DNA from: a virus
IMG/VR virus record: IMGVR_UViG_3300045988_173642
Location: 32,001 to 96,000 of that record
Reading direction: 5' to 3' (one strand)
DNA length: 64,000 nt
Part shown: positions 2,616-63,947 of the stretch, piece after piece
Layout of the letters: each line of letters starts with the position of its first letter
Numbering within the stretch: the first letter of the stretch is position 1
The notes under the pieces: model-generated
Seen by the model: the letters and a program-made list of their open reading frames with translations, nothing else
The model's database searches: none
What the model was told of the DNA's origin: nothing
Position numbers and translations under genes: made by a program

Positions 2616-3521
2616 ATGGAATTACGTCATCTACGCTCTTTCGTCAGTGTCGCCGAAACGCTTTCTTTTTCTTTGGCAGCCATGCGATGTTTTGTCACTC
2701 AGTCGGCCATCAGTCAACACATCAAAGCGCTGGAAGACAAACTTGGCTGCAAACTATTTATTCGCTCTTCACACGAAATCACACTAACGGAAAGCGGAGC
2801 GGCCTTGTTGCCGCGTGCAAAAGAGATTCTCAAACAAGCTGAAGACTGCAAGGAACACATTAACGCCATCAACAACTGCATGAAGGGTGAGCTGCGCATC
2901 GGCGTTGGCTCGTTTATCGCACCATACATCCGCGAGGCAGCACTCCGCTTCATGGAGCGATACCCTAACGTGCGGCTGAATGCGGAACTTACCAAGGCAA
3001 CCAGTCTCAACCGCTTGCTGAAGGAACACACCATCGACCTGGCATTCACGATGAACACGGCCTACCAGGATGAAGGCATTGAAACACAACCTTGCATCCC
3101 CTTCCATATCTACACCGTCATGCGAAACACGCATCCGCTGACGCGCCTGCCGAAGGTGACGTATGAGGATTTGTTGAAGCATAGCGTGATTATGCCAGAT
3201 GTAGGTGACCGCTTGTTCAACACTTTTCAACAATACCTGCAACACGACCTGACGAAACTAAATGTCAAGTGCATCGTCAGTGACCCAGACGAAGACTTGG
3301 CCATTGTGGAACAAACGTCCTACATTACCTTCATGTCGAAACTCTACATGAAGCAACATCCAACGTTGGCGGCACGCCCTATCGTTGGCCTGGAACACGA
3401 ATTAATGAGCAACGCGCATTGGATGCAAGATGTGCCAATGAAACGCTCAGCACAAATTTTTCTTGACATCATCCGACAGGAGGTGGTGCCCTACATTAAA
3501 GAACTGGAAAAACTCTACTGA
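2616..3521 (+). CDS. LysR-family transcriptional regulator
   Basis: N-terminal wHTH signature MELRHLRSFVSVAETLSFSLAA...QSAISQHIKALEDKLGCKLF...TLTESG. About 300 aa with a substrate-binding-size C-terminal part. Confidence 0.85.
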   Translation: MELRHLRSFVSVAETLSFSLAAMRCFVTQSAISQHIKALEDKLGCKLFIRSSHEITLTESGAALLPRAKEILKQAEDCKEHINAINNCMKGELRIGVGSFIAPYIREAALRFMERYPNVRLNAELTKATSLNRLLKEHTIDLAFTMNTAYQDEGIETQPCIPFHIYTVMRNTHPLTRLPKVTYEDLLKHSVIMPDVGDRLFNTFQQYLQHDLTKLNVKCIVSDPDEDLAIVEQTSYITFMSKLYMKQHPTLAARPIVGLEHELMSNAHWMQDVPMKRSAQIFLDIIRQEVVPYIKELEKLY

Positions 3522-4399: not shown

Positions 4400-7300
4400 T
4401 CACGACTTGCCCTTCATGAATTTTGTTGCCTTGTTCATGCTGTCGTAGAGGTTGCCGTGGCCGAACATATCAATCTTGGCGGGGATTGGTTCGCTCAGGC
4501 GTTTCAAGAGCGCGTTTGCGGCCTGCAAAAGTGCGGCGTTGGCTGCAACATTGCTCGCCATCAAATCATCCGACAGAGAAACGCCAGAGAGCTGAGTGGC
4601 GGAATCCGCCACATTGCCGCCGTCAAAGACACGGCGGACACTTCGCCCAGAATAATTGCGGTCGAAGTTGACAAGCGCCTTCAACAGTTGCGGACTATTC
4701 AGCATCATGGCGCGTGTCGTTTCGCGGCCGATAACGATTTCTGGTCCATTCTCGGCAACGAGCGAGGGTTGGCCGTTGATGATGGTTGCCGTTGGCGTTG
4801 TCAGTAAGTTCACGCCGCCATGCCGCGCGTTGTCTTCCCGTGCCATGAAAATTTCTCCGGTGTCGGCCACGTATGGCCGCAATTCTTGAACGTTTCCGGA
4901 ATCGTAAGTCAGCATTCCGGACGTCACCTTGAATTTGTTGGAGTTGGTATCTGCGGCCTTATTGCCTCCAAAGGCACTCGACAAAGCACCCTTAGCCATC
5001 GACAGAAGACCTCCGAGCACTGCACTGATGACGGCAATAAGCGGAATGCCCCACCAACCGAGTTTACCGATAGTCTTGGCAGAACCTTCAGCAATGCCAG
5101 CGGCCGTTCCGACACTGGCACTTGCAACAGAGGTGTTGGCGTCTTCGATGGCTTGCGCCTTCTTCGTGGCAGACAGTTCAACTTCTGACTCCGCCATCAA
5201 CGTGTTGTAGAGCTTTGTCATCACGAACTGTGTGAGTTTTTGTTTTACATATTCGCCCGTGAGGTCGATGAAGGAATTTATCATGTCGCGCGTAGCTTGC
5301 TTTACCGATTTGCTCTCGTCGGTCAGTGCTTCGCCCAAGGCTGTGCCATATTGTTCAATTGGCTTATACCATTTTATCTGCGCTTCGGCCGTTGCCTTCG
5401 CTTTGGCTGCCACGGCATCCATCAAGGAACTATTGAGTTCTGCGACGCGCGCCGCAGCGGCCATGCGGTCTTCGTCGCTGCCTTTGTGGTCTTCAATAAA
5501 ACGATAATACTCCTTCGCCTGGTTAAGTTTCAATTTCAGCAATTCAAGTTCAGGGTCGGTGCCCTTGCTCTGGCCCCACGGCAAAACGATGTCAGCATTT
5601 GCGCCGAAAGAATAGCGACGAGCACTCTCCTTGTTTGTTTCCTCTTTCGCGTCGATAGCTGCCGTCCATTGTTTATTTTCGTCTGACTTATTCCACCGAT
5701 ATTCATTCAATTTCTTTCGCTCTTGGTCATTCTTCTTCAGCGCAGCAGTATAATCTTCATCATACTTAATGAGCCGTTCGTAAAACAGTTTCCAGGCCTC
5801 TGTGTCATCGCCGAGCGTCTGCTTAATGCGGTTGCCGAAACCATCTGCGTCATCGCCAAAAAGCAGATATATGAGCGAAAGACGGCCTTTCACGCTGCTC
5901 ACATCTATCGAGAGCACCTTCACAATTTCGCGCCGTGCCTGCTCATACATGTCTAAAATCAAGTCCTTGCGCTTATTAAACGCCTGGCGGCCTGCTGCGT
6001 CGTCTTGATTCTCCAGCTCATTCAGATTGGCGAACCCGAAGCTATTAAACGCGCCATACGCTCCGCTCTTCACTGCATTCGTGAAGTCAAGTGAAAGAAT
6101 CTCCTTCTGTCGCGCCTGTTGTTGCTGTGCCGCTAACGTCAAATTGTCTTTCGCATTCTTGGTAGCTTTTTTGAAAATTTCAGCCATTACAGAGTGCAGA
6201 GGGATGCCGAGTTCCTGAGATAACTTGCCGATTTTCTTTCGCAAGGCTTCAACGTCATTATTCATAATGCTCTCCAGCAGTTCCTCAGAAAGATTCACCC
6301 CCGCAGCATCTTCCTGCTCCAACATCTGCTTCCTCAAAGATTGCTTTAGAGCCTCCCAAACGTTCGCCTTTCCGGCGATAGCCAACCGAGCCTGCTCGAG
6401 AGCCTTGTTTTCCGCCGCCTTCAGTGGAGCAACATACAACGCCTGCTCCTCCTTGTCCATACCGCGAGCAATAGCTTCTTCGAGCTTAACATTGATTTGC
6501 CGCTCGAAAAAATTAGTAACATTATCCAACAAGGCGTTGGCGTCCGCCTGTGCCTGTTTTAATTCGTCGCGCCGCGACTTTATTCGTTCGCGACGTTCCC
6601 GTGCCAAACGCTTTTCCCTTTCTTCTTCTGTTTCTCCGTCAGACAAAGTACCGAGGTCGTCAATGGGAGGTTCGTAATTGCCAATCCAGGGTTTGAAAAC
6701 GGCATCGATTTCTGACATTGATTTGACAAGTCTATTGCCGCTATTACGATACCAATTAAGAGCCCTCCATAGTCCTGTATCGCCGTAAGTGATAATCCCA
6801 GGGATGCGTCCATTTGGACCATAGCTTACAATGTTATAATCTCCACCAACTTTCCAGTTTAAACCCTTTTCTAACTTACGACTTGTCGCTCCTTTTATGA
6901 ATTTGCCAGACATTGGATGCTTTCCGCTATTTATGGCTTCTCGAACAAGCCCCAAATAGATGTCCCACACATTCTTTCCATCCTCAATGTCATCGATTAT
7001 AGCGTCATAAGAATCCACCGAAAACCACGGGGTTTTCTGCAAATACCGACGAAGATTAATTGCAGCCCCCTGCTTGTCTCTACGTCTCTCCTCCCCTACT
7101 TCTTCTACCGCCTTCTGCTTGAAACGATAATAAGTTGCCTGGGAAATCGACGTCGACAACTTGTCATAATACTTACGCAAATCGTCAACAGTCTTGATTT
7201 CAATGCCGAGGTTTGTAAGATATTGTCGATATTCCGAATTGATGCGGCGAATGAGTTTCTGCTTATTTTCCTGCGACACGTTGGCATCATCCAAGCGCTT

Positions 7301-39730: not shown

Positions 39731-41428
39731 TCATCGCGTGCAGGCAAATCCACCTGCAATCAACGGGAACAAGAAGAAGGGCAAACCAAACAACGACAAG
39801 GCCGCGGAGAGGGCAATAAATGCCAGCACCCAGGTCAGCAATTGACAGAGGATGTTTTTAGGCTTTAACCGCTCGCGCCTGGCCCTTTCCCGTTCTTCGC
39901 GTTCTTCGCGTTCAAATTCTGCGTCTCTCTTCTTAAAGTACTCCTCGTCGTCCACCATAATGTAATGGCGCTTTGGTTGACGTTTTTTAGGTACATCAAA
40001 CATGGCTTTCAGCCGTTCTAATTCGGCCTCGTATTCTGGCGTGCCTTCTTGGTCGACGACGGCACGTTCAAGGGCGATAACTTGTTGTTCGTCTACGGCT
40101 TCATCCGCCGCAGGCGAATCCGTAGTTACCGCAGGCGCATCCGCCGTTATTTCAAGGGCGGTAACTTGTTCCGCCGTAGGCGCATCTTCCATTATGGCAG
40201 GCGCATCCGCCACATTCTCCTGCACTTGTTCTGGCTTTTGAATCTCTGAGACGACCGATTCTTCCACCCTTCCATCTACACACACAATCACGTCACCGTG
40301 CAGACTCACTTCAATCTGGCATCCAGGACTCAATCTCTTCGACATAAAAGAGCGTTCACTGCCGCAGTTGGCATGGGCAAAACGGTGCCCATTCATTTCC
40401 ACTTCGTCAAAGTCGGCCACATAAGTGACCTTACCCGTCTTTTCGCCAATGGTGGTATGATACCAACGGTAAATGGTTACGGCCTTGTGTATCGGGCGAA
40501 ATTTAAACGCGCAGTTGAATTTCGCATCATGATTTGTGCAGCCAATGCGGTCATAAACCGCGTAATCATCAAACTTAAATACCAGTCCATCGGTCGGCCA
40601 CGGCAACTCGGCACGGCGCGTTTCGGCTTCACACACAATTTGCTCCACCGCCTGCTCCAACTCTGCCATGTTGCCATTGAAATGAAAACCATCCACCATG
40701 CCTGAAATCAAGAACCCAAGGCGCTCCAGTTCACGCATCGCATCGCATTGTGTAGAGTAAGCGTCCGACAGCAAGCGGAAAGGGTGGAACTCCAACAGGC
40801 GACAATCGGCAGCCACGGCTATTTTCTTTGACATGATGCCGTTGCTCGTCACGCGCGGTGATTTCCCAGCCTTGCTATAACGAGAGAAGGTGTCAAGAGA
40901 AATGATCACCTCCCCGCGTACCTCCGTGCGAGGTGTGTCGCGCCAGGCTTCCACATATCCAGGCACGCCCTGCACGTGGCGAATGTGCGCCAAACAGTCG
41001 TTGCCCATCAACTCTTTTCCGTGGCCGTAGGTAGCTTCAGCAAGATGCCCATTAATATATACAAGTGCCACCGTTTCGCCGTCAAATTTCCATTCGACAT
41101 CGATAAAGACATCTTCAAGACGTGCAGCCGTCTGCTGCGCTTTAAGGTATTTCACCATGTCTGCCGCGGTATGCACTTTCTTCATAGATAGGCAGGGCGT
41201 GCGGCGTGCCACGGTGCGTTTCCCGTTCCCGTTCTCGCTATAGCACGTCTGCGTCGGCGAATCGGCCAACACGTCCTCCGGGTGCTTGTCCTCATATTCC
41301 TGCAAGGCAAAATAAAGCGCATCATACGCTTCGTCGCTGATTTCCGGCGCATTCAGCGTAAAATATAGGTAATCGTGCTTTTTAACCTGGTCAACGGCAG
41401 CACAATAGTCTTTCTGTGTCTCAATCAT
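39731..41428 (-). CDS. NAD-dependent DNA ligase-like protein (Ia + adenylation + OB) with acidic repeat linker and hydrophobic C-terminal tail
   Basis: N-terminus ...YLYFTLNAPEISDEAYDALYFALQEYEDKHPE...DSPTQ, KxDG motif EWKFDG. No Zn/HhH/BRCT-like part. C-terminus ILCQLLTWVLAFIALSAALSLFGLPFFLFPLIAGGF. Confidence 0.6.
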   Translation of the reverse strand: MIETQKDYCAAVDQVKKHDYLYFTLNAPEISDEAYDALYFALQEYEDKHPEDVLADSPTQTCYSENGNGKRTVARRTPCLSMKKVHTAADMVKYLKAQQTAARLEDVFIDVEWKFDGETVALVYINGHLAEATYGHGKELMGNDCLAHIRHVQGVPGYVEAWRDTPRTEVRGEVIISLDTFSRYSKAGKSPRVTSNGIMSKKIAVAADCRLLEFHPFRLLSDAYSTQCDAMRELERLGFLISGMVDGFHFNGNMAELEQAVEQIVCEAETRRAELPWPTDGLVFKFDDYAVYDRIGCTNHDAKFNCAFKFRPIHKAVTIYRWYHTTIGEKTGKVTYVADFDEVEMNGHRFAHANCGSERSFMSKRLSPGCQIEVSLHGDVIVCVDGRVEESVVSEIQKPEQVQENVADAPAIMEDAPTAEQVTALEITADAPAVTTDSPAADEAVDEQQVIALERAVVDQEGTPEYEAELERLKAMFDVPKKRQPKRHYIMVDDEEYFKKRDAEFEREEREERERARRERLKPKNILCQLLTWVLAFIALSAALSLFGLPFFLFPLIAGGFACTR

Positions 41429-41946: not shown

Positions 41947-41980
41947 GTTCGTGTTATTTTTTAATTTTAATCTGCATTTT

Positions 41981-42012
41981 TTTGCTTGACAAAAATAAAT
42001 TTATTATCTTTG
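41981..42012 (+). promoter_or_regulatory. Bacteroidota-type promoter (TTTG -33, TATCTTTG -7)
   Basis: TTTG at 41981-41984 and TATCTTTG at 42005-42012, with a 20-nt spacer. Confidence 0.55.
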
Positions 42013-42019
42013 CAATGTC

Positions 42020-42162
42020 TTCGGAGGCTTTTAATCGAACCATCATGGAATTGAAAGAAAAATACACTTCCGTGGACACGCTCTAAGAGCGAATTTCTAC
42101 TATTGTAGATTGCGAGCGGAAGGCTCGCACCAGCCCTGGCCTATGTGCCGGGGCTTTTTTAT
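42020..42162 (+). ncRNA. candidate ~140-nt small RNA (or 13-codon leader peptide mRNA)
   Basis: The promoter above, an internal hairpin GCGAGC-GGAAG-GCTCGC, and terminator AGCCCTGGC-CTATGT-GCCGGGGCT plus TTTTTT. The only ORF is a 13-aa one (MELKEKYTSVDTL). Confidence 0.4.
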
Positions 42163-42164
42163 TG

Positions 42165-42215
42165 CTTGTCACTCCAACAGGAATCGAACCTGCACCATGC
42201 CGACCACGGAGAGCG
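42165..42215 (-). other. tRNA-like T-arm/acceptor element E0
   Basis: Minus strand reads CTCTCCG-TG-GTCGGCATGGT-GCAGG-TTCGATT-CCTGT-TGGAGTG-A. T-loop fits TTCRANY; the flanks pair at 6 of 7 positions. Confidence 0.35.
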
Positions 42216-42284
42216 GTGGGGCGTCGCTATCCTCACGGACAACGACAGCCTAAAAACAAAAAAGATTATGAATTTAAATAACGT

Positions 42285-42335
42285 GTTGCCGCCAGCGGAG
42301 TCGAACCGCTGCAAGGCCAGACCGGGCGCGGATGC
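42285..42335 (-). other. tRNA-like T-arm/acceptor element E3
   Basis: Minus strand reads CCGC-GCCCGGTCTGGCCTTGC-AGCGG-TTCGACT-CCGCT-G-GCGG. Preceded by hairpin GCCTCG-CGAAAAAA-CGAGGC. Confidence 0.35.
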
Positions 42336-42365
42336 CTCGTTTTTTCGCGAGGCTATAAAGAGGGA

Positions 42366-43424: not shown

Positions 43425-43480
43425 GCACCCGTCGGCGGAATCGAACCGCCGCAAGGCCATCCAGGCACGGGATTCCTGGG
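43425..43480 (-). other. tRNA-like T-arm/acceptor element E1
   Basis: Minus strand reads CCCGT-GCCTGGATGGCCTTGC-GGCGG-TTCGATT-CCGCC-G-ACGGG. The interior is nearly identical to E3, while both stems differ and still pair. Confidence 0.35.
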
Positions 43481-43485
43481 CTGCG

Positions 43486-43683
43486 TCAAAAGGTTTGGCG
43501 CAAGCAGGTGAACAGTGCGTCTAGTCCCATGTTGTACTCTATGCGCTCCTTGCTGCCGAACTCGTCGGGATTGGGAGAATTGAGGGTGATATACTCTATG
43601 ATGCGTGTCATGGCCTCACGGAGGCTCGCCTTGTCCATATCTATTGTTATAACTGTCTTTTCCATTGTCGTTTTGATTTGCAT
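43486..43683 (-). CDS. hypothetical protein (N-terminus MEKTVITIDMD shared with 44372-44800)
   Basis: 65-aa ORF. Confidence 0.45.
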   Translation of the reverse strand: MQIKTTMEKTVITIDMDKASLREAMTRIIEYITLNSPNPDEFGSKERIEYNMGLDALFTCLRQTF

Positions 43684-45465: not shown

Positions 45466-46149
45466 TTATTTTTCGTCCTTCCTTAATACCGTCCTCACGC
45501 TATAATAGGGCGTATTGAACGGATATTTAACTTCGTAAATGTAGTACACCGCCATCGGTTCGCTCATGAGCAGTGTGTCGCGACATTCCACGCGGCCGGC
45601 CATGCCGTGTGCCATGAAGTTCAAGGCACACATCTTGCACGCGATAGGGTCTTTATCTTGCGCCACATATTCAAAGCGGCGGCCGGCGGAATGGTCTTTT
45701 TGGCTTTTGTCCATATAGTGGGCAAGGAGCAGGCGGCCGCTACCTGCCGCGCAGTCGTTCACCATTCCGCTGTCTTTGTCTCCGCGGTTGAGAATCCGCG
45801 ACATTAGGTCCGACACGTCATGTGGCGTGAAGAACTGGCCCGTTTTCGAGGCTTTTCCGCGACTGAGGTACATTTCCTCATACAAGATGCCGAACACATC
45901 CAGCCATCGGCCCTTTTCCATGTCCTCCGCCACGTCCTGGAGCCATTGCAGCGCAAGCCCCGTAAACTCCGGATTTTTTTCCGCGCAACGCAAAATGTGC
46001 TGGCTATATTCGGCCGTTCCTCCCTTGAAGGCGTCAATGCTGAATAACTCTAAAAGGTAGTCGCAGAAGTCGCTCAAGGCCATTTCTTGTGGTCGGTGGT
46101 TTTTGTCGGCCTGTTCGGTCAATATGTCTATATATTTATTTTTATCCAT
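45466..46149 (-). CDS. truncated N6-DNA-methylase (HsdM-like) AdoMet-binding domain lacking the catalytic NPPY/F motif
   Basis: GQFFTPHDVSDLM and VNDCAAGSGRLLLA motifs, then YVAQDKDPIACKMCALNFMAHG. The protein ends before any NPP[YFW]. Start refined to MDKNKY (the upstream motif lies inside the longer ORF). Confidence 0.55.
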   Translation of the reverse strand: MDKNKYIDILTEQADKNHRPQEMALSDFCDYLLELFSIDAFKGGTAEYSQHILRCAEKNPEFTGLALQWLQDVAEDMEKGRWLDVFGILYEEMYLSRGKASKTGQFFTPHDVSDLMSRILNRGDKDSGMVNDCAAGSGRLLLAHYMDKSQKDHSAGRRFEYVAQDKDPIACKMCALNFMAHGMAGRVECRDTLLMSEPMAVYYIYEVKYPFNTPYYSVRTVLRKDEK

Positions 46150-46381
46150 GATTTCTGATTTTTTAGATGTTTTATAATAGGGGCTGCGCTGCTCTGTTAG
46201 GCACAGCCCGTGACCTATGTCAATAATCACTTCCACATAGCAGAAGGGTAGACGCATGTGCTCAACGCATTATCACGGGCATACGCGCGAATTTCATAAT
46301 CGTAGCCCTTTATTTCCTTCATTATGGATTCCGCTTTTCGCGCAAGGCGCAGATAAGCAGAATACTTCTTCTTGGAATCCT

Positions 46382-46996
46382 TCAATTCTGAATGTCTGCC
46401 ATCAATTCTTTCTTATAGAAAGCTATAACGACGACTGCCTTTTGTGCGTCCAAGCGATCCCCAGTGTTCCATAACCAAAGCCATTCAATATCACAATATT
46501 GATTTCGCCCGTGGCTCGAATCGGCCATCATAGACACGAAGGGTCTATTATTGTTATTGTATTCCCGGCCATAGTACGTTATCTTATAATTATTCCCCCC
46601 AAAACCGCTCTTAAAACCGGTTTCGGCTTCCACGGCATCGTGAAAACGCTTATTAAGCACCTTCCCGTCGAATTGACGGCACACTTGAATCAGGCCGTCC
46701 AGGGCTTTCACTTCCAACTGCGTGCGCTTGATTAGCTTGTCAACATGTTGGCAATATCTTTGCACCTCCTTAGCCTTCTTGACGGTCTTAAAATCCGCCT
46801 CGCTGCCAATGCTGTAAGAAGATGCCGGAATATTGCGCTCGAGGTCTTCCTGGTTGCATAACGCGGCGAACTTCTGCGCATCTTTGTCAGAAGAAAAACG
46901 ATTAAACCACTCTGGACTATCGGTGTTCCATAACCATACATTACCATCATTGTTGATAAGATTCTTCGCTTCATTAAATATTACTTTCATAATCAT
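46382..46996 (-). CDS. hypothetical protein
   Basis: 204-aa ORF preceded by CCCTCTATTATAG. Confidence 0.55.
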   Translation of the reverse strand: MIMKVIFNEAKNLINNDGNVWLWNTDSPEWFNRFSSDKDAQKFAALCNQEDLERNIPASSYSIGSEADFKTVKKAKEVQRYCQHVDKLIKRTQLEVKALDGLIQVCRQFDGKVLNKRFHDAVEAETGFKSGFGGNNYKITYYGREYNNNNRPFVSMMADSSHGRNQYCDIEWLWLWNTGDRLDAQKAVVVIAFYKKELMADIQN

Positions 46997-47041
46997 GTAT
47001 TTTTTTTAAACTATAATAGAGGGCCGCACGCGAGCGGGGGC

Positions 47042-48712
47042 TTACACCCCGAACCACTCGCGCAAGCATGCCACGGCCTCTGGTGCGCTGGCCTGCCACT
47101 GCTGTTCTGCCTTGTTCCAGGTCGCGCCGTGCGCCTTGATGGCCTTGCGGTTGCGGTAGGTCGTTCGCCCATCGCCTACCACCGCCACGCCGTCGGCAAT
47201 ATCAACCAGCGCCAGTCCTTCTGCGGGTGCTTCGTCGTCCTGTGCGGCATCCTGAACGGCTGCGGCTGTATCGGTGCGCTCGTCCAACGTTGGGCTGGCT
47301 GGCGCCGTTGTTGGCGTGTAGCTGCGAAGGGTCCATACGTGACGGGCAATACTATCGGCTGTTGCAGTTGAGCTGTGAAAGAATAAAGGGCGCATATTGA
47401 CGCCAAGGGCGTCGGCAAGGGCGTCCACCTCTTGCAACGAATAGCTATAATAGCCATTCTGCCCATATTCATTTTTAACATTCGCGGCCGGCACAACGGA
47501 GAGTACTTCAGCCAATATCTCATTGCGTGCTTCATCCGACATTTTCCGCTTGATTGCAATATCTCCAGCGTTGTTGCCCATAGTTTTGCGGGCAAAATCG
47601 ACGAACTCAGAATAAAATACATCTGTCGAATCGTCCCAACCGTTGAACGTGTCGCGACGGCTGCAGAACAGATCTAAATCCGTTTTTTCCGAAAATTCTT
47701 CTTCGGTCGGTCCGTCGGTCCAAGTTACCTCGAAATCAGCGCCCCAGCCGCGGCGCACAGATACGGAGAACTTGACGCCGGGGAAAGCCGCGGTGCACAT
47801 CGCCAAAATATTTGCCTTTCGCGCGTTGTCAATCTTTCGCGCCGTGGTCTTACCGTCCTTCTCCAGTTCTTCAACGTTGCGCATGAGGTGAGACCATCTG
47901 GCGCAGCGTTCGCGGTATTCGGCGAGGCGTGCCGCCTTCGCTTCGGCTTCCTGGCGTTCCTCTTCCGCTTTTCTGGCTTCTTCGGCCGCCTTAACGGCTG
48001 CCAATTCGTCGGCGAATAAGACAGGCCACACGATTGGTAGATATATATAGCGGGCATAATCATAGCCCTCAGAATCAATGAGGAAGTACTTGCCAGACGG
48101 TGAAACGACAAGCGCACCGACGGTGTAGAATGTGGCCCAGTCTTCTTCGTTGTACGTACCAGTAGAGGCATCGTCGGACACATCTTCAGAACGACTGAAA
48201 CCGCGCAAGGTGTAGCGGGCCACAAGTTCATCCGCCAATTCTGGACGTTGGAAATATTCTTCCGTTACATTGATTATTCGTTCTACGCAACAGAGTCGGG
48301 CAGGCTGCTCTCCTGCCTTGGTGTAGTAGGTGAGGTTATGCAGTTCCTCGAATAAGCCGCGTCCGCCGTCGCATTTGAGGCCGCTATTGTCGGCCCAAAA
48401 GAAGCCGCCGACGGCGGGAATACCTTCGAGGCGGTCGGCCTCTTTAGCATGCTCTGCATACTTGGTGCGCTGGCGTGCGGCCTCTTTGTTTGCGATAAGC
48501 TCGCGAGCAGCGACTTCGGCTGCCTCTGTCGTGGCCTTGCCGAATGTCTTCACGTACGCCGGGCGTGAGATAGGCGACATAGGGCCGCACCAACCACACA
48601 AGCAAATATATTGTTCGTTATCGCTGTAATACTGTGCACGTTGAGCCTTGTCTTTTAAAACCTTAGATAAGTTCTCGGCAATCACGTTAAGGGGTACATT
48701 CTTTGTAGTCAT
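47042..48712 (-). CDS. large hypothetical protein (multi-domain, coiled-coil centre)
   Basis: 556-aa ORF with a TATCTTTG box on the minus strand (complement of 48751-48758). Resembles polyvalent/anti-restriction-associated proteins of mobile elements only loosely. Confidence 0.6.
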   Translation of the reverse strand: MTTKNVPLNVIAENLSKVLKDKAQRAQYYSDNEQYICLCGWCGPMSPISRPAYVKTFGKATTEAAEVAARELIANKEAARQRTKYAEHAKEADRLEGIPAVGGFFWADNSGLKCDGGRGLFEELHNLTYYTKAGEQPARLCCVERIINVTEEYFQRPELADELVARYTLRGFSRSEDVSDDASTGTYNEEDWATFYTVGALVVSPSGKYFLIDSEGYDYARYIYLPIVWPVLFADELAAVKAAEEARKAEEERQEAEAKAARLAEYRERCARWSHLMRNVEELEKDGKTTARKIDNARKANILAMCTAAFPGVKFSVSVRRGWGADFEVTWTDGPTEEEFSEKTDLDLFCSRRDTFNGWDDSTDVFYSEFVDFARKTMGNNAGDIAIKRKMSDEARNEILAEVLSVVPAANVKNEYGQNGYYSYSLQEVDALADALGVNMRPLFFHSSTATADSIARHVWTLRSYTPTTAPASPTLDERTDTAAAVQDAAQDDEAPAEGLALVDIADGVAVVGDGRTTYRNRKAIKAHGATWNKAEQQWQASAPEAVACLREWFGV

Positions 48713-48885: not shown

Positions 48886-49224
48886 ATGAAAGTATATATT
48901 AAAGAGATGTTAGCCCTTAAAGGGCTGACGCAAAAAGACATCGCGGAGAGGATGGGCGTAACGCAATCCAACGTTTCGGCCACAATATCCAGGCCTTCCT
49001 TCCCCACGTTGGAACGCATTGCAGAAGCCTTGCAAGTTGAACCCTGGCAACTGTTGGCACCGCCTTCAATCGTGGAAGAACTCCAACAGGCGAGAGCGCA
49101 GCAGGGATGCGAGCGCGGACTTGTAGGCGTTGTCCGCGTCGGGTGTGAGATATACACGGCCGATTCGGTGAATCAATTACGCGCCATTGTGGAACGGCTG
49201 GAACAAGCAGAAAAAAACAAATGA
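48886..49224 (+). CDS. XRE-family HTH regulator
   Basis: MLALKGLTQKDIAERMGVTQSNVSATISRPSFPTLERIAEALQVEPWQLL is a classic HTH_3 pattern. Confidence 0.75.
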   Translation: MKVYIKEMLALKGLTQKDIAERMGVTQSNVSATISRPSFPTLERIAEALQVEPWQLLAPPSIVEELQQARAQQGCERGLVGVVRVGCEIYTADSVNQLRAIVERLEQAEKNK

Positions 49225-49280
49225 AAAAGAAATCCCGGCAGGCTCAACCTGGCGGGATTTCTTTTGCAATTTTAAAACGC

Positions 49281-50332: not shown

Positions 50333-50566
50333 TTAAAATTGAATACAAAGCAGGAGTGCCACAACGGCCAAAATGCAGTTATACACGACGAGTTTTGCCC
50401 CGGTTAGCCGCAACGGGTCACCGTCGCCAGCAAAAAAATCGTGTTCGGCCTTCAGCCAACGGCGGAGAGATGCAGCGCAACGGCGAAGGGCGCCGGCACG
50501 GATAACGCGTGCAGCTGGAGCGGCGGCGCGTGGTGTGGTGTAAATGGTAGTTGTTTCCATAATCAT
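50333..50566 (-). CDS. hypothetical small protein with C-terminal hydrophobic helix
   Basis: 77-aa ORF with tail LVVYNCILAVVALLLCIQF. Confidence 0.4.
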   Translation of the reverse strand: MIMETTTIYTTPRAAAPAARVIRAGALRRCAASLRRWLKAEHDFFAGDGDPLRLTGAKLVVYNCILAVVALLLCIQF

Positions 50567-50582: not shown

Positions 50583-50634
50583 TGTAGCCGCCGGGGGACT
50601 TGAACCCCCGGCGAGGCCTGGAACCTCCGCGGCT
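50583..50634 (-). other. tRNA-like element E2 (D-arm-less cloverleaf-like fold)
   Basis: Minus strand reads AGCCG-C-GGAGG-TTCCAGG-CCTC-G-CCGGGGG-TTCAAGT-CCCCCGG-CGGCT-A. The 7-nt loop has U33-like T and central CCA. Overlaps the stop of 50634-51032. Confidence 0.35.
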
Positions 50635-51032
50635 TATTTGGCATGCTTACAGGCATTTTCGTAGTCTTCCAATAATTTCCACCGCTCATAAATGGGACCC
50701 CTAACGCCTCTATATTTCCCGGCGTTGGCCGACAAATAAGAGTTAACGGCGGTGAAGGCGTCGCGCCGTACGCGCCCCGTTAGTTCGACGTGTTCTCCGC
50801 AAGCACCGCCGCGCGGTGCGTTGTTGTAGCACTTGTGGGCCACGCCCGCAGCGGTTAAGACCTTGTGCACCTCGTGGGTCTCCACATGATAAGTCCTTTT
50901 GTCACTGTAGCCAGTTTGGGCCACGCCCTTAAGCAAAAGAGTTATTATATGGTTATATGTGCGCGTATTTTTGCGAAGGCCGAAGGGGCGAGGGTCGCGA
51001 ACCACCTGTAATAATATGGAAAACTGTTTCAT
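50634..51032 (-). CDS. hypothetical protein
   Basis: 132-aa ORF. Confidence 0.5.
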   Translation of the reverse strand: MKQFSILLQVVRDPRPFGLRKNTRTYNHIITLLLKGVAQTGYSDKRTYHVETHEVHKVLTAAGVAHKCYNNAPRGGACGEHVELTGRVRRDAFTAVNSYLSANAGKYRGVRGPIYERWKLLEDYENACKHAK

Positions 51033-51622: not shown

Positions 51623-52259
51623 TTCTTTAACTGTGATTATTTTTTTTCATAATCTTATTTTTTGTTTACGAGTGCAAAGTTACAAATATGATAACGCATA
51701 AGCAAACAAAAAAGATATTATTTTCACCTTCCACCCATTATTTAACATCACAAAACATCTAAATAGTAAAAGTGGAAGGCGTACATGTCAAAAAGCAATG
51801 GCAAAGCGTCTTATATATATAGGAGTGCAGCGGGGCGGGTGCCGCGCTCAAGTTGGCCGCCGCCATTGTCGTTTGCCCGCGACGCTGCCACGCGTCGGCA
51901 TATTCGGGCGGCATCCTCAAGGCGGGGGCAGGCTGTGGAACTCAGTGCGGCGTGGGCTCTCGCTTGAAAACCAACCTTTTAAGGCAAAAAGCAAACTTGC
52001 GATTTCTTTGTATTTCAATTATTTATGTGTCCCTATTGGGAGCAGCCGTTTTTCAAGCTAAATAACGCCACGGGGAAATTTAGAGGATAAATCGCAAGAG
52101 GAACGGGGAAAAAGAATAATATAGCTATATATTAAACATAGTTTAATATATAGCATGAGGATAGACAAAACGGGCAGTGGAAAGAAGCCTTTTTCAATGT
52201 AAAAACAAACAGAAATGCAAAATAGCGCCAATAAATTTGCGTAACACAAACAAAAATGC

Positions 52260-52295: not shown

Positions 52296-52709
52296 ATGGA
52301 AACAAAGAACGAACCAAAATCAAAAGTGAATCTCCGCAAACTCATGAAAAAGTTGGGCATGAGAACAAGACAATTTGCAAAAGCAACTCATCTCTACGAC
52401 GCGACTTTGGCGCGTTATCTTCGCACGGACTCCATCACTGCAAATCAAATCTACAAAATTGCGATGGCGCTCGATATTGACCCGCGCGATATGTTCTTTC
52501 CAACGGACGAAAAGGAGGACGAAAATTTGCTCTTCACGGACGACGAAGAGGAGCAGGAGGAGATGAAGGAAGAAGTTTCGGAAGAAGTGGTAGAAGAAGT
52601 GGCGGAAAAAGATAAGCAAGACGCTGCACCTGCACAACTGCAAACAACGGCCTTCTGCCCACACTGTGGCGCAAAGGTGCGCGTGGGCGTGGTGCTCATG
52701 CAGGAATGA
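52296..52709 (+). CDS. HTH regulator with acidic linker and C-terminal zinc-ribbon-like CPHCG
   Basis: N-terminal LRKLMKKLGMRTRQFAKATHLYDATLARYLRTDSITANQIYKIAMALDIDPRDMFF (XRE-like), an E-rich linker, then FCPHCGAKV. Confidence 0.65.
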   Translation: METKNEPKSKVNLRKLMKKLGMRTRQFAKATHLYDATLARYLRTDSITANQIYKIAMALDIDPRDMFFPTDEKEDENLLFTDDEEEQEEMKEEVSEEVVEEVAEKDKQDAAPAQLQTTAFCPHCGAKVRVGVVLMQE

Positions 52710-58611: not shown

Positions 58612-59066
58612 GCCTCTTCTATCTTGAAGGCCGGTTTGGCCAATGCCTTGCAGCGTTCGGCAAAGGCTGTCACTTGCTCCAGGTCGGTTGTGTCACCAAG
58701 CAATGCCTTGCGGTGAGCGCACAACTCTTCTGCATAAGAATATCGAGCGCCAATGAGATAAGCGGCCAAGGTATGATAATCTGAGATGCGGTACACGGCC
58801 ACAAGTTCTTTGATGAATGCCGCGTCAAGACTGTCAAATAAGCCCTGCTGATAAATGGTCTGCAGCAATGTCTGTGCCGTCATTCGTCCTTCATGCGAAA
58901 TGGCCAGTGTGGTGCAACGAACGCGCTGCTCTCCTGCATCATTCTTATAAGATGAAGGGGAGAGGTTGATGGTCAAGAACTCCGTGTTCTTGGAATAAGA
59001 GCGAACGATGTGGCGGGGATTTTCCGTCAAATCTTCGCATTGGCGAAGGGGAATTTTTTCTCTCAT
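58608..59066 (-). CDS. hypothetical protein (DGR-linked accessory ORF)
   Basis: 152-aa ORF with 4-nt ATGA overlaps with both the RT stop and the next ORF start. Confidence 0.5.
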   Translation of the reverse strand: MREKIPLRQCEDLTENPRHIVRSYSKNTEFLTINLSPSSYKNDAGEQRVRCTTLAISHEGRMTAQTLLQTIYQQGLFDSLDAAFIKELVAVYRISDYHTLAAYLIGARYSYAEELCAHRKALLGDTTDLEQVTAFAERCKALAKPAFKIEEA

Positions 59067-60538
59067 AAAATAGATGTTTGAATCATTTTACATTTGTTTC
59101 GCAAACGAATCCGCTCAAAATGGCCATGAATGTAAAAGAACTCGTAGAAGACATGTTCAAAAATAGATAGTGTCGTTTTACGTAAGAGGTAAGACCTTTT
59201 ATTCTTGAAAAAACCGAGGTACGAGTTGATGACTTGTTCCATGCGACGAAGGTCGCACAAGGATATAATGGATTTTTCGCGCAACATTTGGTTGAATCCA
59301 AAAACGCGCTCACGGAAACGAGCAACGGTGCGGCTGGACAGGTATATACGATAGTAACGGATGTAGGCTCCAACAAACATAACACCATGTGAAGCTAATT
59401 GAAAATGATATTTGGTGACGTGAAGCGTAATACCAAGTTCAGACGACAGAAACAAGCGAGCGTCAATGATGAAGGCTTTTAAAGCAGACTTGCTGATGCA
59501 AATGACAACAAAATCATCTACAAAACGCGTGTAGTAGACCTCAAATCCACGGAGTTTGAACCATTGAATTACGAAATCATCAAAGAATGACATAAGGAAA
59601 TTCACGAACACTTGCGTTGTGATATTCCCAATTGGCATTCCGAAGGCAACATCGCTGCCGAAAAGCGACTTATGGCGCTCAATATGCTTGTGCCATTCAT
59701 CTGGCGATGTGTTGAACACACAATTTTGCTCGGGACAATGAAACACGATGGTTTTGGATGCGGCGAACAATTGTTTCAAGTATTGGCCTTTGTATTGTTC
59801 GCGGATGAACGGTTCCAGTTTTGACCATAATATACGCTTGTCTATCGACATGAAGAACGAGACGATGTCGCCCTTAAACACCCATGCAGGGCGGCTATAA
59901 TTGCAAGTTGCCTTCTTGATGTTGTCATATACGGCCTTCTGAGCCGCAAGGGTGCCAAATCCTTTTCGGCAATTGAATGACACATTACCTTGTTCAATAA
60001 AACGCCGCTCAAAATACGGATTGAGAAAAAGAATAATGAAATGATGAACGATGCGATCGCGAAAGCAAGCCGCAAAAACCTCTCTATATTTCGGGTATTT
60101 CACAAGGAAACACGTGCTGACGCCTGGCTTATATGCTCCAGTATATAATTCATGTGCCAATGCTGGCAAATCATGTTCGGCTATCTCGCAATAGTCGATA
60201 CATGCACGGCTGGTGCGTTTACGCTGGCAACAATCGTCAAAAGCAAAAAGCACAAGATCAAGAAAGTCGGTAGGAATATCAAAAGCGACGACAGGACGAA
60301 CCACAAACCCGTTGTACTTATTGTTGTTGTTGATGTTGCCATTGCCGAAGTTGCTGTTCCAACTGTTGTTGCGGTTATACTCCGTGGCGCTCCATCGGTT
60401 GGCCTGAACGTTTACTTTGGGCATTGAAATAGCATAACCACTCCAGACATTTTCATACGAACCATTGCCGTATGAACATAAATCTAAATAGGTATGCCCA
60501 CCTTTTAACAGTCCTCTCGGCTCTCTGTCACAATTCAT
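59063..60538 (-). CDS. DGR reverse transcriptase (long ORF; its first ~95 codons read through the TR; possible true start GTG at 60253)
   Basis: RT motifs FRDRIVHHF, GFGT, GDIVSFFMSID, FGMPIGNITTQVFVN, YTRFVDDFVV. The TR is immediately 5'. Confidence 0.85.
   Translation of the reverse strand: MNCDREPRGLLKGGHTYLDLCSYGNGSYENVWSGYAISMPKVNVQANRWSATEYNRNNSWNSNFGNGNINNNNKYNGFVVRPVVAFDIPTDFLDLVLFAFDDCCQRKRTSRACIDYCEIAEHDLPALAHELYTGAYKPGVSTCFLVKYPKYREVFAACFRDRIVHHFIILFLNPYFERRFIEQGNVSFNCRKGFGTLAAQKAVYDNIKKATCNYSRPAWVFKGDIVSFFMSIDKRILWSKLEPFIREQYKGQYLKQLFAASKTIVFHCPEQNCVFNTSPDEWHKHIERHKSLFGSDVAFGMPIGNITTQVFVNFLMSFFDDFVIQWFKLRGFEVYYTRFVDDFVVICISKSALKAFIIDARLFLSSELGITLHVTKYHFQLASHGVMFVGAYIRYYRIYLSSRTVARFRERVFGFNQMLREKSIISLCDLRRMEQVINSYLGFFKNKRSYLLRKTTLSIFEHVFYEFFYIHGHFERIRLRNKCKMIQTSIL
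60281..60407 (-). repeat. DGR template repeat (TR)
   Basis: 127 bp, 114/127 identical to 61179-61305. All 13 mismatches are at TR adenines on the coding strand. Confidence 0.9.
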
Positions 60539-60562
60539 AAGACAAGTGATTTAAATGATTAT

Positions 60563-61024
60563 TTAAGCACTTACAGAATTACTACCTTGCGAAAATCTGA
60601 CCAGAGAAGATGCGCGCCATGCTGAAACCTGTAAGGAACAGGAAGCGACGAGCGACTTAATCTTCTTAAAATCATCATTACTGATGCAGCCCAATGTCTT
60701 CATGATGCAAATAATAGATTTAATAGCATCTATATGAGCTGCAGCAATAGTCAGCTGCGGCACTCGTGAATACATATCAGCAAATGCAATAGACAAACTC
60801 ACCAATAAACCCGCGCATTCTGAATACATCGGATTGACCACAGGACGATATTTGACTGGACACGTCTTGTTGATTTGCGCCAAGACGAGATACAATTGCT
60901 GAGAATCGCGAAACACCTGCTGCTGATGGATGGTCCGAACTTTCTCTTTCTTGAGCTTTTTACTTCTTTCTTTTTGTTCTGTTGTTATTTGTATATATTG
61001 TGGTTCTTTGTTGTCATTTACCAT
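60563..61024 (-). CDS. avd: Avd-like DGR accessory protein
   Basis: 153-aa predicted helical, basic ORF positioned between VR and TR, as in characterised DGRs. Confidence 0.55.
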   Translation of the reverse strand: MVNDNKEPQYIQITTEQKERSKKLKKEKVRTIHQQQVFRDSQQLYLVLAQINKTCPVKYRPVVNPMYSECAGLLVSLSIAFADMYSRVPQLTIAAAHIDAIKSIICIMKTLGCISNDDFKKIKSLVASCSLQVSAWRASSLVRFSQGSNSVSA

Positions 61025-61132
61025 ACAATTTCCAATTTTATAATTAAATTGTTCACCGCAAAGTTAATAACAATTTTTGATATAAACAAAAATAATTCAG
61101 CCGGCTTACGCCGGCAATGGCATTTTCGTTGA

Positions 61133-61156
61133 GCGACGCGCTAAAAAGCGCGTCGC
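61133..61156. other. GC-rich hairpin 22 nt downstream of the VR end
   Basis: GCGACGCGC-TAAAAA-GCGCGTCGC, a perfect 9-bp stem. A second hairpin GCCGGC-TTAC-GCCGGC lies at 61100-61115. Confidence 0.8.
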
Positions 61157-61163
61157 AAAAAGG

Positions 61164-63947
61164 TTAAAGGATGAAGGGAAAAGCGACGACAGGACGAACC
61201 ACAAACCCGCTGTACTTATAGCTGTTGTAGACGTTGCCATCGCCGAAGTAGCTGCGCCAACTGTAGTAGCGGTCATACTCCGTGGCGCTCCATCGGTGGG
61301 CCTGACGAGGATTGCGCACCGGACAGCCCAGATTGGCGTCTTTCGCGCGTTTCTGCAAGTTTGCATAGAAAGGGCGGCGAGCATCCGTCGGCTCATGCGG
61401 TCGCAGTTCGTTGCCTTCGTCGGAAAAATCCGCCGTTGGCGTACCAGTGTCAGATGGCGTCAGCGCACGGCTATTGCGGAAGAAAATATACAGACGGAAC
61501 ATATCACCGCTGCCATGCAGATACCATTTCCCTTTTTCAAACCACGGCGAAAGGCCGTCAATGGGCTTGCCGCCATTGCTCGGCTCGAACAGGGAACAAG
61601 CGTAGGCGGCAGGATAGGCTAACTGACGCCATCGTTTGTCGCCGCCGATATTTCCAAGCGCCACGCAGAGATCGGCCAGCTCTTCCATCGTTTCTGGAAT
61701 GATATGGTCGCGTACTGCGGGAAGGTAGTCGAAGATGGTGTGACCATCGCTATCTGTCAACAGTCCTTCCCCGACATATTGTGTCAGAATACGATTGGCA
61801 TGTGCCACGATTGAGGCGGTGTCCTTTTTGCCATCCCATCTGTTGGGCGCAGTATTACCTTCATAGACCTTGAATCCGTCACTTTCGTTATCATCATAAG
61901 CCTGCAAGTCTTTGATGTAATACGTTTTTTCGCCTTTTTCGTCCACCATACCAACATCTGTACAATCATTACAAGCGGGGATATTCGTCAAATCGTCATC
62001 AGAGACGGATAATGCTTCAGCAATCACCTTGCGTTCGTCGGGTGTAAATCCCAATTCACCAGTGCCTTGCGGATAAATACCCCATGAAAACTCACTGATG
62101 GAGTTAGCCTTATCTGAGGACGTAATGGTCAGTTCTTCCACGTTTTCGATCAACACTTCATACAGTGTTTTGCCCGAATTATATTGCGCCGAGATTTCTT
62201 CATCCTGCAAATATTCGTTCAAAAGATTCGTTGGTAGGTCGGCATAAGGCGTCACCTTATATACCCAGCCAATAACCTTTTTACCCGGATATAACACGGA
62301 ATCAAACTCACCATTATAGTAAGCGAAATCGCCTAATTTCGGAATGCGGTTGAAAAGTTTCAACACCACTGATGTGCTAAGCGATTTTCCTCCAATCAAG
62401 GTAGCTGTAACAGTCAACGTCGCAGTTGGGTTATTACTTTCCTCGCCGACCGATGGCGCATGCAACACGCCAGTCTCTGCATCCACCGTCACATTAAAAT
62501 CATTCTCAGAGATAGACCACCTTAAATCCGTGAAGTTGTTGGCCATCGTTGGCAACACGGAACATTGGTAAGGATAATCTCCTGGTTCGGCAATAACAAA
62601 GCGTTGCGTAATGATATTCAAGCCTGTCACGCTGCGCAAAGAATAAGTGATATACAAATCATTATTCTCAGAGTCGATTTCGCCGAACTTGCGCAACAAG
62701 GCGAGTTTCAATTCTGCATCCACATTCTGCCCTTCTGTCACGGCAATTCGTCCATACAAAGAGCAATATAGAATCCCAGTTATATAGAATAATACGCTTG
62801 GCGCAACATCTGTCCAATCAATTCCATCTATGCGCAACGTGCTCAACTTTGCGCCAGCCTCACTACATCCACGCACCAAAGAGCGCGTGTCAAAACCGCA
62901 ATTGAGGGCGGTGATCGAAGTTAAACGAGCGTAGCCATCCAGCGTGAGCGTCTGTAACTGCGGCATATCGCGCACTTCAAGTTGTGAGAGCTCCGCACCG
63001 AAGCGAGCCACGGTAAGTTGTGGTGAGGACGGCATACGCACCTGCCCGTATTTCGTTCCGCGAAGGTCGAGTGTTTGCAGTCGTGAAGCCTTAGAGAGGT
63101 TGAATGTTCCGCTGGATGTGCTAACACCATTCAGAGACAGACGCTGCAAATTGGCGGCATCTACATCTATCTGCTTCGGCGCAAACGCACTGCTACCTGC
63201 TTTAGGCTCAGCAATAAACTCCGTCATTCGGCGTCCCTGAATGGTGAAGTTATTATTGCCAACCACCATGTTACCCACGTTACCGATGGAACGATAATAG
63301 TTAGTGGCAGCAAGTCCGACTGATGAGTCGCCAGGAATCGGTGTGGAAGCAGGATTTACTGTGAAGGCATAGTGTCGCCCCGGTATCATGCGGAAATGCG
63401 GGTTGATGAGCGCACGGTCGCGCACGCCACAGGGATAGAGGTACTGATGAGGAACAAGGTCAAATGTGTATTCGCCTCCCGTGCGCCCAGAACCAGGCGT
63501 GAACTGCAAACCAGCGCTGGCGTCCACCAATCCAGTAGAACCAGTGTTCACACCACTTGAGAAGTCACCCCATGCCGCATACGAACAGACAAGAGCCAGT
63601 CGGCGTGTCATATACTGAATCTCGCTCTCCAACTGGTCGCCAATGCCCTGCGTGACGGCGAGAATACCACGCGCCTGGTTGCCGTAACTCTCATAGCCCC
63701 ACGATGCGGGCCAGTCGTATCGGATGCGCTGCTGTTCCGCCCATGCTACCTCGGCAAAGTACTTTTGAACTGAGAAGAAATACTTGTGTATACAACCGTA
63801 TGGCGTTTGGCGTTGTGTCGTTGTAAGGCCGTCTATATTCTCATTCGCCCCAACCAACGTACACATGGCCGTCAACACTTCACGCATATTGGCCGGCAAT
63901 GCCGTTTGGTCGAGCGTTTCCCATGCCGCCTCCATGACATTGAACAA
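61164..63947 (-). CDS. DGR target protein, probable receptor-binding tail fibre (LRR-like repeats, Ig-like segment, C-terminal variable lectin-fold-type domain)
   Basis: 927 aa. LRR-like LQRLSLNGV...LQTLDLRGT...LSQLEVRDMPQLQTLTLDG...LSTLRIDG. Ig-like TVDAETGVLHAP...LTVTATLIGGKS. VR within the last 50 codons. Confidence 0.8.
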   Translation of the reverse strand: MFNVMEAAWETLDQTALPANMREVLTAMCTLVGANENIDGLTTTQRQTPYGCIHKYFFSVQKYFAEVAWAEQQRIRYDWPASWGYESYGNQARGILAVTQGIGDQLESEIQYMTRRLALVCSYAAWGDFSSGVNTGSTGLVDASAGLQFTPGSGRTGGEYTFDLVPHQYLYPCGVRDRALINPHFRMIPGRHYAFTVNPASTPIPGDSSVGLAATNYYRSIGNVGNMVVGNNNFTIQGRRMTEFIAEPKAGSSAFAPKQIDVDAANLQRLSLNGVSTSSGTFNLSKASRLQTLDLRGTKYGQVRMPSSPQLTVARFGAELSQLEVRDMPQLQTLTLDGYARLTSITALNCGFDTRSLVRGCSEAGAKLSTLRIDGIDWTDVAPSVLFYITGILYCSLYGRIAVTEGQNVDAELKLALLRKFGEIDSENNDLYITYSLRSVTGLNIITQRFVIAEPGDYPYQCSVLPTMANNFTDLRWSISENDFNVTVDAETGVLHAPSVGEESNNPTATLTVTATLIGGKSLSTSVVLKLFNRIPKLGDFAYYNGEFDSVLYPGKKVIGWVYKVTPYADLPTNLLNEYLQDEEISAQYNSGKTLYEVLIENVEELTITSSDKANSISEFSWGIYPQGTGELGFTPDERKVIAEALSVSDDDLTNIPACNDCTDVGMVDEKGEKTYYIKDLQAYDDNESDGFKVYEGNTAPNRWDGKKDTASIVAHANRILTQYVGEGLLTDSDGHTIFDYLPAVRDHIIPETMEELADLCVALGNIGGDKRWRQLAYPAAYACSLFEPSNGGKPIDGLSPWFEKGKWYLHGSGDMFRLYIFFRNSRALTPSDTGTPTADFSDEGNELRPHEPTDARRPFYANLQKRAKDANLGCPVRNPRQAHRWSATEYDRYYSWRSYFGDGNVYNSYKYSGFVVRPVVAFPFIL
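61179..61305 (-). repeat. DGR variable repeat (VR) at the 3' end of the target gene
   Basis: See TR. Encodes ...HRWSATEYDRYYSWRSYFGDGNVYNSYKYSGFVVRPVVAF versus the TR-encoded ...NRWSATEYNRNNSWNSNFGNGNINNNNKYNGFVVRPVVAF. Confidence 0.9.

Follow-up and report, generated by a model that had tools for sequence, protein, structure and literature searches.

A conserved and recurrent tRNA-like RNA element between two genes of an uncultured tailed phage

The stretch of DNA analysed in this study (IMG/VR record IMGVR_UViG_3300045988_173642, positions 32,001 to 96,000; 64,000 nucleotides (nt), hereafter the window) accounts for the greater part of the genome of an uncultured tailed phage. We focused on E2, a short transfer RNA (tRNA)-like element whose core occupies positions 50586..50634 of the minus strand, between two open reading frames (ORFs) of the same orientation. 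The upstream ORF (50634..51032, minus strand) encodes a protein of 132 amino acids (aa), and its TAA stop codon overlaps the element by 1 nt (the third base of the codon, at 50634, is A1 of E2), as had been pointed out in an earlier interpretation made from the letters of the DNA (hereafter the sequence-only reading). The downstream ORF (50333..50566, minus strand) starts approximately 20 nt after E2 and encodes a 77-aa product, a putative small membrane protein that is rich in Arg at its N-terminus and has a hydrophobic segment at its C-terminus. No Pfam or PHROG match was found for the flanking ORFs. The AlphaFold2 (AF2) model of the 132-aa protein is confident (predicted local distance difference test score, pLDDT, 88.8), and a Foldseek comparison of this model with the PDB gave no neighbour with E<0.09.

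E2 is located inside an operon, since there is a promoter-like site about 1 kilobase (kb) upstream, a terminator 1.3 kb downstream, and no U-tract of its own (the element is followed by ACACUAACGAAAAAAA). The promoter-like site, of the Bacteroidota type (TTTG...TAACTTTG, 51675..51706, minus strand), was found by a motif scan and is the probable start of the operon. The bipartite Bacteroidota promoter pattern TTTG-N17-23-TAnnTTTG occurs 11 times in the window, compared with 2.4 expected, and a Bacteroidota host is therefore probable. The likely end of the operon is a canonical intrinsic terminator (a GC hairpin followed by UUUUUCAUUU, 49226..49280, minus strand), which was recognized in Rfam alignments with the terminator stems of ohsC, ncr1175 and ctRNA and shows that the phage uses ordinary terminators. 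The operon is bracketed by two Cro/C1-type helix-turn-helix (HTH) genes (48886-49224 and 52296-52709), both on the plus strand. In the region 45466-48712 (minus strand), the gene of a 556-aa protein carrying an LPD29 "polyvalent protein" domain lies beside a 263-aa N6-adenine methylase fragment-like ORF; polyvalent-protein and methylase genes are typical of counter-defence or early regions.

The minus strand from 50634 to 50583 agrees letter for letter with that given in the sequence-only reading, and is numbered here so that element position i equals 50635 minus the window coordinate. It contains three helices: an outer stem of 5 base pairs (bp) (P1), a 4-bp hairpin (P2) and a 7-bp stem with a canonical T-loop (P3, the T-arm). 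The 5' strand of P1, AGCCG (A1-G5; 50630..50634), is followed by the linker CG (positions 6-7), the P2 hairpin GAGG-UUCCAGG-CCUC (positions 8-22; 50613..50627), whose loop ends in GG, the linker G (position 23), and P3, CCGGGGG-UUCAAGU-CCCCCGG (positions 24-44; 50591..50611). The 3' strand of P1, CGGCU (positions 45-49), an A at the discriminator position (50) and then CA (51-52) complete the sequence (50583..50590). The T-loop, TTCAAGT in the DNA, fits the consensus TTCRANY, as had been claimed, and the canonical tRNA T-arm core GGTTCRANYCC is present as GGTTCAAGTCC at 50596-50606 of the minus strand. The internal hairpin had been written with GGAGG as its 5' strand; the 4-bp GAGG/CCTC stem was confirmed, whereas the first G of this pentamer is unpaired.

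The minimum free energy (MFE) structure of E2 computed with RNAfold (-29.8 kcal/mol) is the proposed three-way junction, which is also the consensus fold of 11 variants. Its z-score against dinucleotide shuffles was -2.98, and three of 200 shuffled sequences folded equally well. The outer stem and the T-stem stack to 12 bp (5+7, with a 6+6 register equally possible), in agreement with the sequence-only reading. The 7-nt anticodon-like loop assigned to P2 can indeed be drawn, but it is only one option, because two U.G pairs can close the loop; in the thermodynamic model these pairs reduce it to 3 nt (MFE) or 5 nt (centroid). The P2 loop, UUCCAGG, closed by a G-C pair, fits the T-loop pattern U-U-C-x-A, and its version in the relative L002, UUCAAGG, is a full match to TTCRANN. 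P2 may therefore be a second T-loop hairpin of E2, and neither anticodon-like nor D-like.

Elements of this kind recur in the window. The exact motif GGTTCRANTCC occurs four times (0.30 expected; none of 100 shuffled sequences reached four), and all four copies are intergenic and lie on the minus, i.e. coding, strand. A structure descriptor (P1, then P2, then P3 with a TTCRANY loop, then the closing strand of P1) matched three elements, E2, eB and eC, all on the minus strand, whereas 200 shuffled sequences gave 0.245 matches on average and never more than 2. In addition, a covariance model (R1), built from E2 variants only and used to search 128 kb of sequence on either strand, scored E2 itself at 92.4 bits and gave eA (18.7 bits, E ~0.003) and eB (13.9 bits, E ~0.09) as its next best full-length matches.

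Element eA (43428..43471, minus strand) has the form CCCGU / GCC-UGGAU-GGC / CGGCGG-UUCGAUU-CCGCCG / ACGGG and is conserved in two relatives (L017 and L021). Element eB (42289..42331, minus strand), found with both the descriptor and R1, has CCGCG on the 5' side and GGCGGC-ACAC on the 3' side in common with E2. Element eC (42170..42215, minus strand), a descriptor match, consists of P1 CGCUCU/GGAGUG, P2 CCGUG-GUCGG-CAUGG and P3 GCAGG-UUCGAUU-CCUGU, followed by ACA. Across the four elements the pairing of P1 and P3 is kept with different sequences; P2 has stems of 3-5 bp and loops of 5-7 nt, also of differing sequence, with GG present in all four loops. Three wobble-type changes were found in the sole relative available for eB and eC (L023), all fitting the structure: a C>T in the T-stem of eB, which is wobble-compatible, and two changes in eC that convert G.U into G-C, in P1 and in P3. 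Judged from sequence, E2 is one of at least four paralogous intergenic elements of the coding strand (E2, eA, eB and eC). The opinion that its fold is genuinely tRNA-like was upheld by this excess of the motif on the coding strand and by the conservation described below.

Relatives of the E2 locus were gathered by protein look-ups of both flanking genes and by DNA pattern scans. These yielded approximately 25 loci with 12 distinct E2 sequences, all from one phage clade and all with the element in the same location; pattern scans of viral, metagenome and genome sequences revealed no distant copies. E2 forms a peak of conservation (mean pairwise identity 0.92-0.97, compared with 0.55-0.80 in the upstream and 0.82-0.89 in the downstream coding sequence), and the spacer and start region between the element and the 77-aa gene are likewise conserved. 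The P2 stem is invariant in 11 variants, CGGCU is invariant, and P2, P3 and the 3' strand (CGGCU-A-CAC) are nearly so. The T-loop consensus is kept: the single substitution in the loop, A34>G, leaves position 57 (R57) a purine, and the G53-C61 closing pair is retained. Most of the stem substitutions are C>U changes, which preserve pairing only in the minus-strand RNA; three of them are wobble-compatible events in E2 (C3>U and C4>U in the 5' strand of P1, and C25>U in P3). The remaining changes include C15>A in the P2 loop, which turns CCA into CAA in L002 and L017, and A50>G at the unpaired discriminator position (L118/119).

In every relative carrying it, E2 lies directly upstream of the 77-aa gene. 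In L002 (3001-3160, the same sequence as L017) the homologue of the 132-aa gene has lost about 240 nt through an internal deletion and ends at a premature stop (17 codons), and E2 is intact. The 132-aa gene is therefore dispensable, and E2 is independent of both this gene and the overlapping stop codon. In three more distant relatives (L011-L013; upstream protein 42-54% identical, gene after next 53% identical) E2 and the 77-aa gene are both absent, from which it follows that they travel together, and a plain GC hairpin occupies the intergenic slot, which is consistent with a role at the RNA level.

It might be proposed on this basis that E2 is a structured RNA whose resemblance to tRNA is merely ancestral, i.e. 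a stabiliser, translational regulator or protein-binding site for the 77-aa gene that works without tRNA enzymes. Such an element could block exonucleases or control access to the A-rich start region, although we consider this mode of action, like the reading itself, rather unlikely. The joint gain and loss of E2 and the gene, the constant distance of about 20 nt to the gene start, the plain hairpin in the same slot of distant relatives, the Arg-rich N-terminus of the 77-aa protein and the extension of conservation into the spacer and start region all speak for it. It leaves unexplained, however, the perfect T-loop consensus (with the purine at R57 and the G53-C61 pair kept), and the three further elements of the same architecture located elsewhere are followed by no such gene.

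Alternatively, E2 might be a decaying tRNA pseudogene or a recombination scar (e.g. of the insertion of the 77-aa gene) with no present function. Phage tRNA arrays are known to decay, E2 lies at the edge of an indel relative to L011-L013 and shows no covariation, and the eB/eC cluster is absent from one relative (L022). We nevertheless find a remnant improbable: the conservation of E2 exceeds that of both flanking coding regions, the element has outlived the inactivation of the upstream gene, and four independent leftovers are unlikely to have converged on a closed P1-P2-P3 architecture of 46-52 nt.

The sequence-only reading had described E2 as a mini-tRNA lacking a D-arm, with the internal hairpin as an anticodon arm whose central CCA would read UGG, while considering decoding unlikely. 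This caution proved well founded, whereas the description itself was not sustained. ARAGORN never called E2, whether run in the standard, metazoan-mitochondrial (-mt), relaxed (-ps70/80/90/95) or transfer-messenger RNA (tmRNA) modes. The -mt mode, which had been suggested as a check, gave nine calls in the window, none at E2, and -mt -ps95 applied to the isolated E2 region gave nothing; the relaxed modes returned hundreds of noise calls, together with one poor "tRNA-Ser" model over eA. Similarly, the Rfam tRNA model (RF00005) gave no match to E2, including when the search space was reduced to 101 nt at E<=10. The best Rfam match of the element was mascRNA-menRNA (RF01684), at 19.0 bits compared with a gathering score of 42.5, and the next was tmRNA, limited to the 18 nt of the T-arm (12-15.6 bits, cut-off 47). 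In the window as a whole, ARAGORN with default settings found no tRNA and no tmRNA gene, and no Rfam family was matched at the gathering score.

A functional, aminoacylated mini-tRNA decoding UGG would be favoured by the 12-bp stack and T-loop of E2 and by the 7-nt loop option, in which position 33 is U and position 37 a purine. It is opposed by these negative searches, by connectors of only 1-2 nt between the helices, by the predicted shrinkage of the P2 loop to 3-5 nt (and by loops of 5-7 nt in the paralogues), and by the loop triplet, whose conservation in relatives had been suggested as a check, and which is CCA in most variants and CAA in L002 and L017. E2 resembles the armless tRNAs of metazoan mitochondria in its length (about 50 nt) and number of helices (three), and one of its hairpins allows a 7-nt loop to be drawn. 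E2 differs from them in being GC-rich, in its perfect T-loop (the opposite of theirs), in its connectors, which are too short, and in its non-conserved triplet. To our knowledge, armless tRNAs are not used by bacterial ribosomes or EF-Tu. A decoding function is thus extremely improbable, and the label "tRNA-like" is justified for E2, whereas the label "D-armless mini-tRNA with an anticodon" is not.

The known systems to which E2 can be compared include the t-elements of plant mitochondria, which were found by the same GGTTCRANYCC search. It has been proposed, and in part demonstrated, that t-elements guide RNase P and RNase Z to the cuts by which mRNA ends are defined, sometimes inside reading frames (Forner et al. 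2007, PMC1920247). The structural definition of a t-element (PMC1920247) describes E2 well: a non-canonical fold with a T-arm motif, internal to an mRNA and adjoining a coding end. Both are non-canonical tRNA-like folds in mRNA precursors, next to or overlapping the ends of reading frames. E2 differs in that it belongs to a double-stranded DNA (dsDNA) phage whose Bacteroidota-type host would have a bacterial RNase P based on RNA, has only three helices in about 50 nt, shares no sequence homology with t-elements, and is only predicted to be processed.

A second analogue is mascRNA, with MEN-beta (RF01684): the alignment of E2 spans the whole model (acceptor-like stem, small internal hairpins and T-arm). 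RNase P and RNase Z release mascRNA from a longer transcript, and CCA is added to it. E2 is not a member of this family, because 19 bits fall short of the gathering score of 42.5, and mascRNA, unlike E2, is vertebrate, nuclear and built of four helices. The tRNA-like domain of tmRNA also combines an acceptor stem and a T-arm without an anticodon arm, and the T-arm of E2 aligns with its positions 346-363. In contrast to tmRNA, E2 has no tag reading frame, pseudoknots or G3.U70 and is a contiguous 50-nt unit inside an mRNA, of which 18 nt match. Finally, host RNase P cuts several tRNA-mimicking precursors of phages or bacteria, namely the C4 RNA of phages P1 and P7, the CI RNA of phage P4 and bacterial operon mRNAs. 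The C4 and CI RNAs, which are antisense immunity regulators with defined targets, differ from E2 in this regard.

Of the classes already described, tRNA-like processing elements accommodate E2 best, as a variant carried by a phage. The stack and T-loop constitute the part of tRNA recognized by RNase P, RNase Z, the CCA-adding enzyme and T-loop-modifying enzymes, and both RNase P of bacteria and CCA-adding enzymes accept 12-bp acceptor/T minihelices as substrates. Since E2 holds this recognized part, and since t-elements and mascRNA are its closest analogues, we rate as most likely, though tentatively, that it is a t-element-like cis signal for processing or stability, used by the tRNA-maturation enzymes of the host, from which a tRNA-like RNA of approximately 50 nt may be released. 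Searches of the literature collection used here revealed no report of such elements in phages.

According to this proposal, E2 would be a cis-encoded mimic of the tRNA "elbow plus acceptor", consisting of the 12-bp stack, a true T-loop and one short side hairpin. It would be transcribed within a polycistronic mRNA of early type, between the 132-aa and 77-aa genes, and the minihelix with its T-loop would be recognized by host tRNA-maturation enzymes. RNase P might cut at the 5' edge of the element, no more than 1 nt away from the upstream stop codon, and RNase Z or another 3' nuclease, possibly together with the CCA-adding enzyme, might act at the 3' edge. The operon transcript would in this way be cut between cistrons, with a stable structured end left on one or both products, and the expression or stability of the 77-aa gene would be uncoupled from that of the upstream genes. 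The tRNA-like RNA of about 50 nt would be a possible by-product.

It should be borne in mind that several observations weigh against a processing signal. Cleavage 5' of A1 would take the last base off the stop codon, and CCA is not encoded at the 3' end of E2. Within the element, conservation is lowest in the 5' strand of P1: two of its four substitutions (G2>U and C3>G) break pairs, and none of the four is accompanied by a compensating change on the 3' strand. In P3, G44>A creates a C.A mismatch in about half of the variants. The acceptor-like stem is consequently less supported than P2, P3 and the 3' strand. No compensatory double change was detected in E2 (0 in 16-17 pairs over 7-11 distinct sequences), the clade being too shallow for a covariation signal, and the evolutionary support for the fold therefore consists of conservation, the pairing-preserving C>U bias and the paralogues. 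Moreover, the restriction of E2 to one narrow phage clade does not permit a judgement on the generality of the mechanism.

The same structural evidence would suit another explanation, namely that E2 and eA-eC are trans-acting tRNA mimics, excised as small RNAs of about 50 nt that serve as a decoy or sponge for a host factor binding the tRNA elbow or acceptor. The candidate targets would be tRNA-targeting defence nucleases or toxins and tRNA-modifying or tRNA-binding proteins, and translation might thus be protected during infection; we regard both the decoy and these targets as less probable still than a tRNA-independent structured RNA. The context is suggestive: the region is of early type and counter-defence flavour (the LPD29 polyvalent protein, the N6-methylase and many small ORFs between two HTH regulators), canonical tRNA genes are missing from the window, and the four paralogues have different stems, as though several tRNAs were mimicked. 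The idea is, however, based wholly on context. Known anticodon nucleases usually act on the anticodon arm, which the elements lack; a partner protein was not found (the neighbours have no family or fold match), nor did the literature searches produce a precedent. Slightly more doubtful is the possibility that the elements form a family of excised "tRNA-elbow" mini-RNAs of about 45-50 nt, combining the stack with a D-loop-like GG hairpin and acting as tRNA mimics in trans or as CCA-tailed or charged minihelices; if so, they would represent a hitherto undescribed class of non-coding RNA in phages.

A role at the DNA level was also considered, i.e. that E2 is a recombination site (an attP core copied from the 3' half of a host tRNA gene, or a site of another kind) or that it is an intrinsic terminator. 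The 3' halves of tRNA genes are common integration targets, and E2 is located at an indel boundary. In an att core, however, the 5' strand that closes the stem would be unexpected, and there was no integrase among the proteins scanned, in a scan that was not exhaustive. The sequence GGGGGTTCRAGTCCCCCNRCGGCTA (T-arm and 3' strand) had no match in 185,579 species genomes (one per species), and the only other viral match to the pattern was an unrelated true tRNA in L016; the P2 pattern gave 93 chance matches in genomes, all lacking the T-arm. We find a DNA-level site very unlikely. An attP copy of a host tRNA was rejected, as none of the 185,579 species genomes carries the T-arm with the 3' strand, and so was an intrinsic terminator, since E2 has no U-tract and is not listed in the terminator scan, and the canonical terminator lies 1.3 kb further downstream. 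Readthrough of the stop codon with coding of E2 (the frame is open for about 60 codons after TAA) was likewise rejected, because the spacer indels of relatives are not multiples of three and the substitutions show no synonymous bias.

If the E2 family is recognized by RNase P and RNase Z, the shaping of mRNAs by "tRNA punctuation" or t-elements, a mechanism known from organelles and mascRNA, would be extended to a dsDNA phage of gut Bacteroidota. Post-transcriptional control is poorly understood in these bacteria, in which mRNA structure is especially important because translation is independent of Shine-Dalgarno sequences. Such recognition would also mean that tRNA finders miss a tRNA-derived class of phage elements, and that the absence of tRNA genes is not equivalent to the absence of tRNA mimicry. 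Should the family instead serve as tRNA decoys in trans, phages would be seen to possess a counter-measure of a new type; if both readings fail, E2 would be a conserved structured intergenic RNA of local interest only. In any case, E2 is a conserved and recurrent element, invisible to standard annotation, that belongs to a narrow clade, lacks covariation, and whose function we infer.

Several additional observations concern the surroundings of the paralogues. Element eA directly follows the TGA stop codon of ORF 43486-43683 and lies about 100 nt upstream of a TAACTTTG promoter-like site, and on account of this position it appears to mark the end of a transcription unit without a canonical terminator. 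The gene downstream of this promoter-like site is not the same in the window and L021 as in L017. Elements eB and eC are located in a 420-nt non-coding stretch dense in structures (41947-42365, minus strand), which is kept in L023 and absent from L022. It contains the hairpin CCTCGCG-AAAAAA-CGAGG, eB, a U-rich stretch, a long hairpin (~42225-42255) and eC, as well as the hairpin AGCCCCGGC...GCCAGGGCT at 42132-42155, and may be a cluster of small-RNA genes. Another hairpin, at 42108-42128, changes from TGCGAGC-CTTCC-GCTCGCA to TGTGAGC-ATTTC-GCTCACA in L023, which is the sole compensatory double change found in this study.

With regard to the phage itself, no GenBank phage matched the window at the DNA level, remote terminase matches being the only ones obtained, and the contigs related to it are 93-102 kb long. 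The window encodes a tape-measure protein (4400-9988), a remote terminase match, a sliding clamp, a ParA-like protein, an exonuclease, an NAD-dependent ligase (39731-41428) and two DNA methylases. It also carries a diversity-generating retroelement (59063-63947) with a reverse transcriptase gene (RVT_1, 59063-60538), whose 127-nt template repeat (60281-60407) is 90% identical to the variable repeat (61179-61305), the latter forming the C-terminal end of a 927-aa target gene (61164-63947). A full-length LysR-family transcriptional regulator (HTH_1 and LysR_substrate domains) is encoded at 2616-3521 on the plus strand; this unusual phage cargo could be a moron gene, or a marker of flanking host DNA or a prophage edge.

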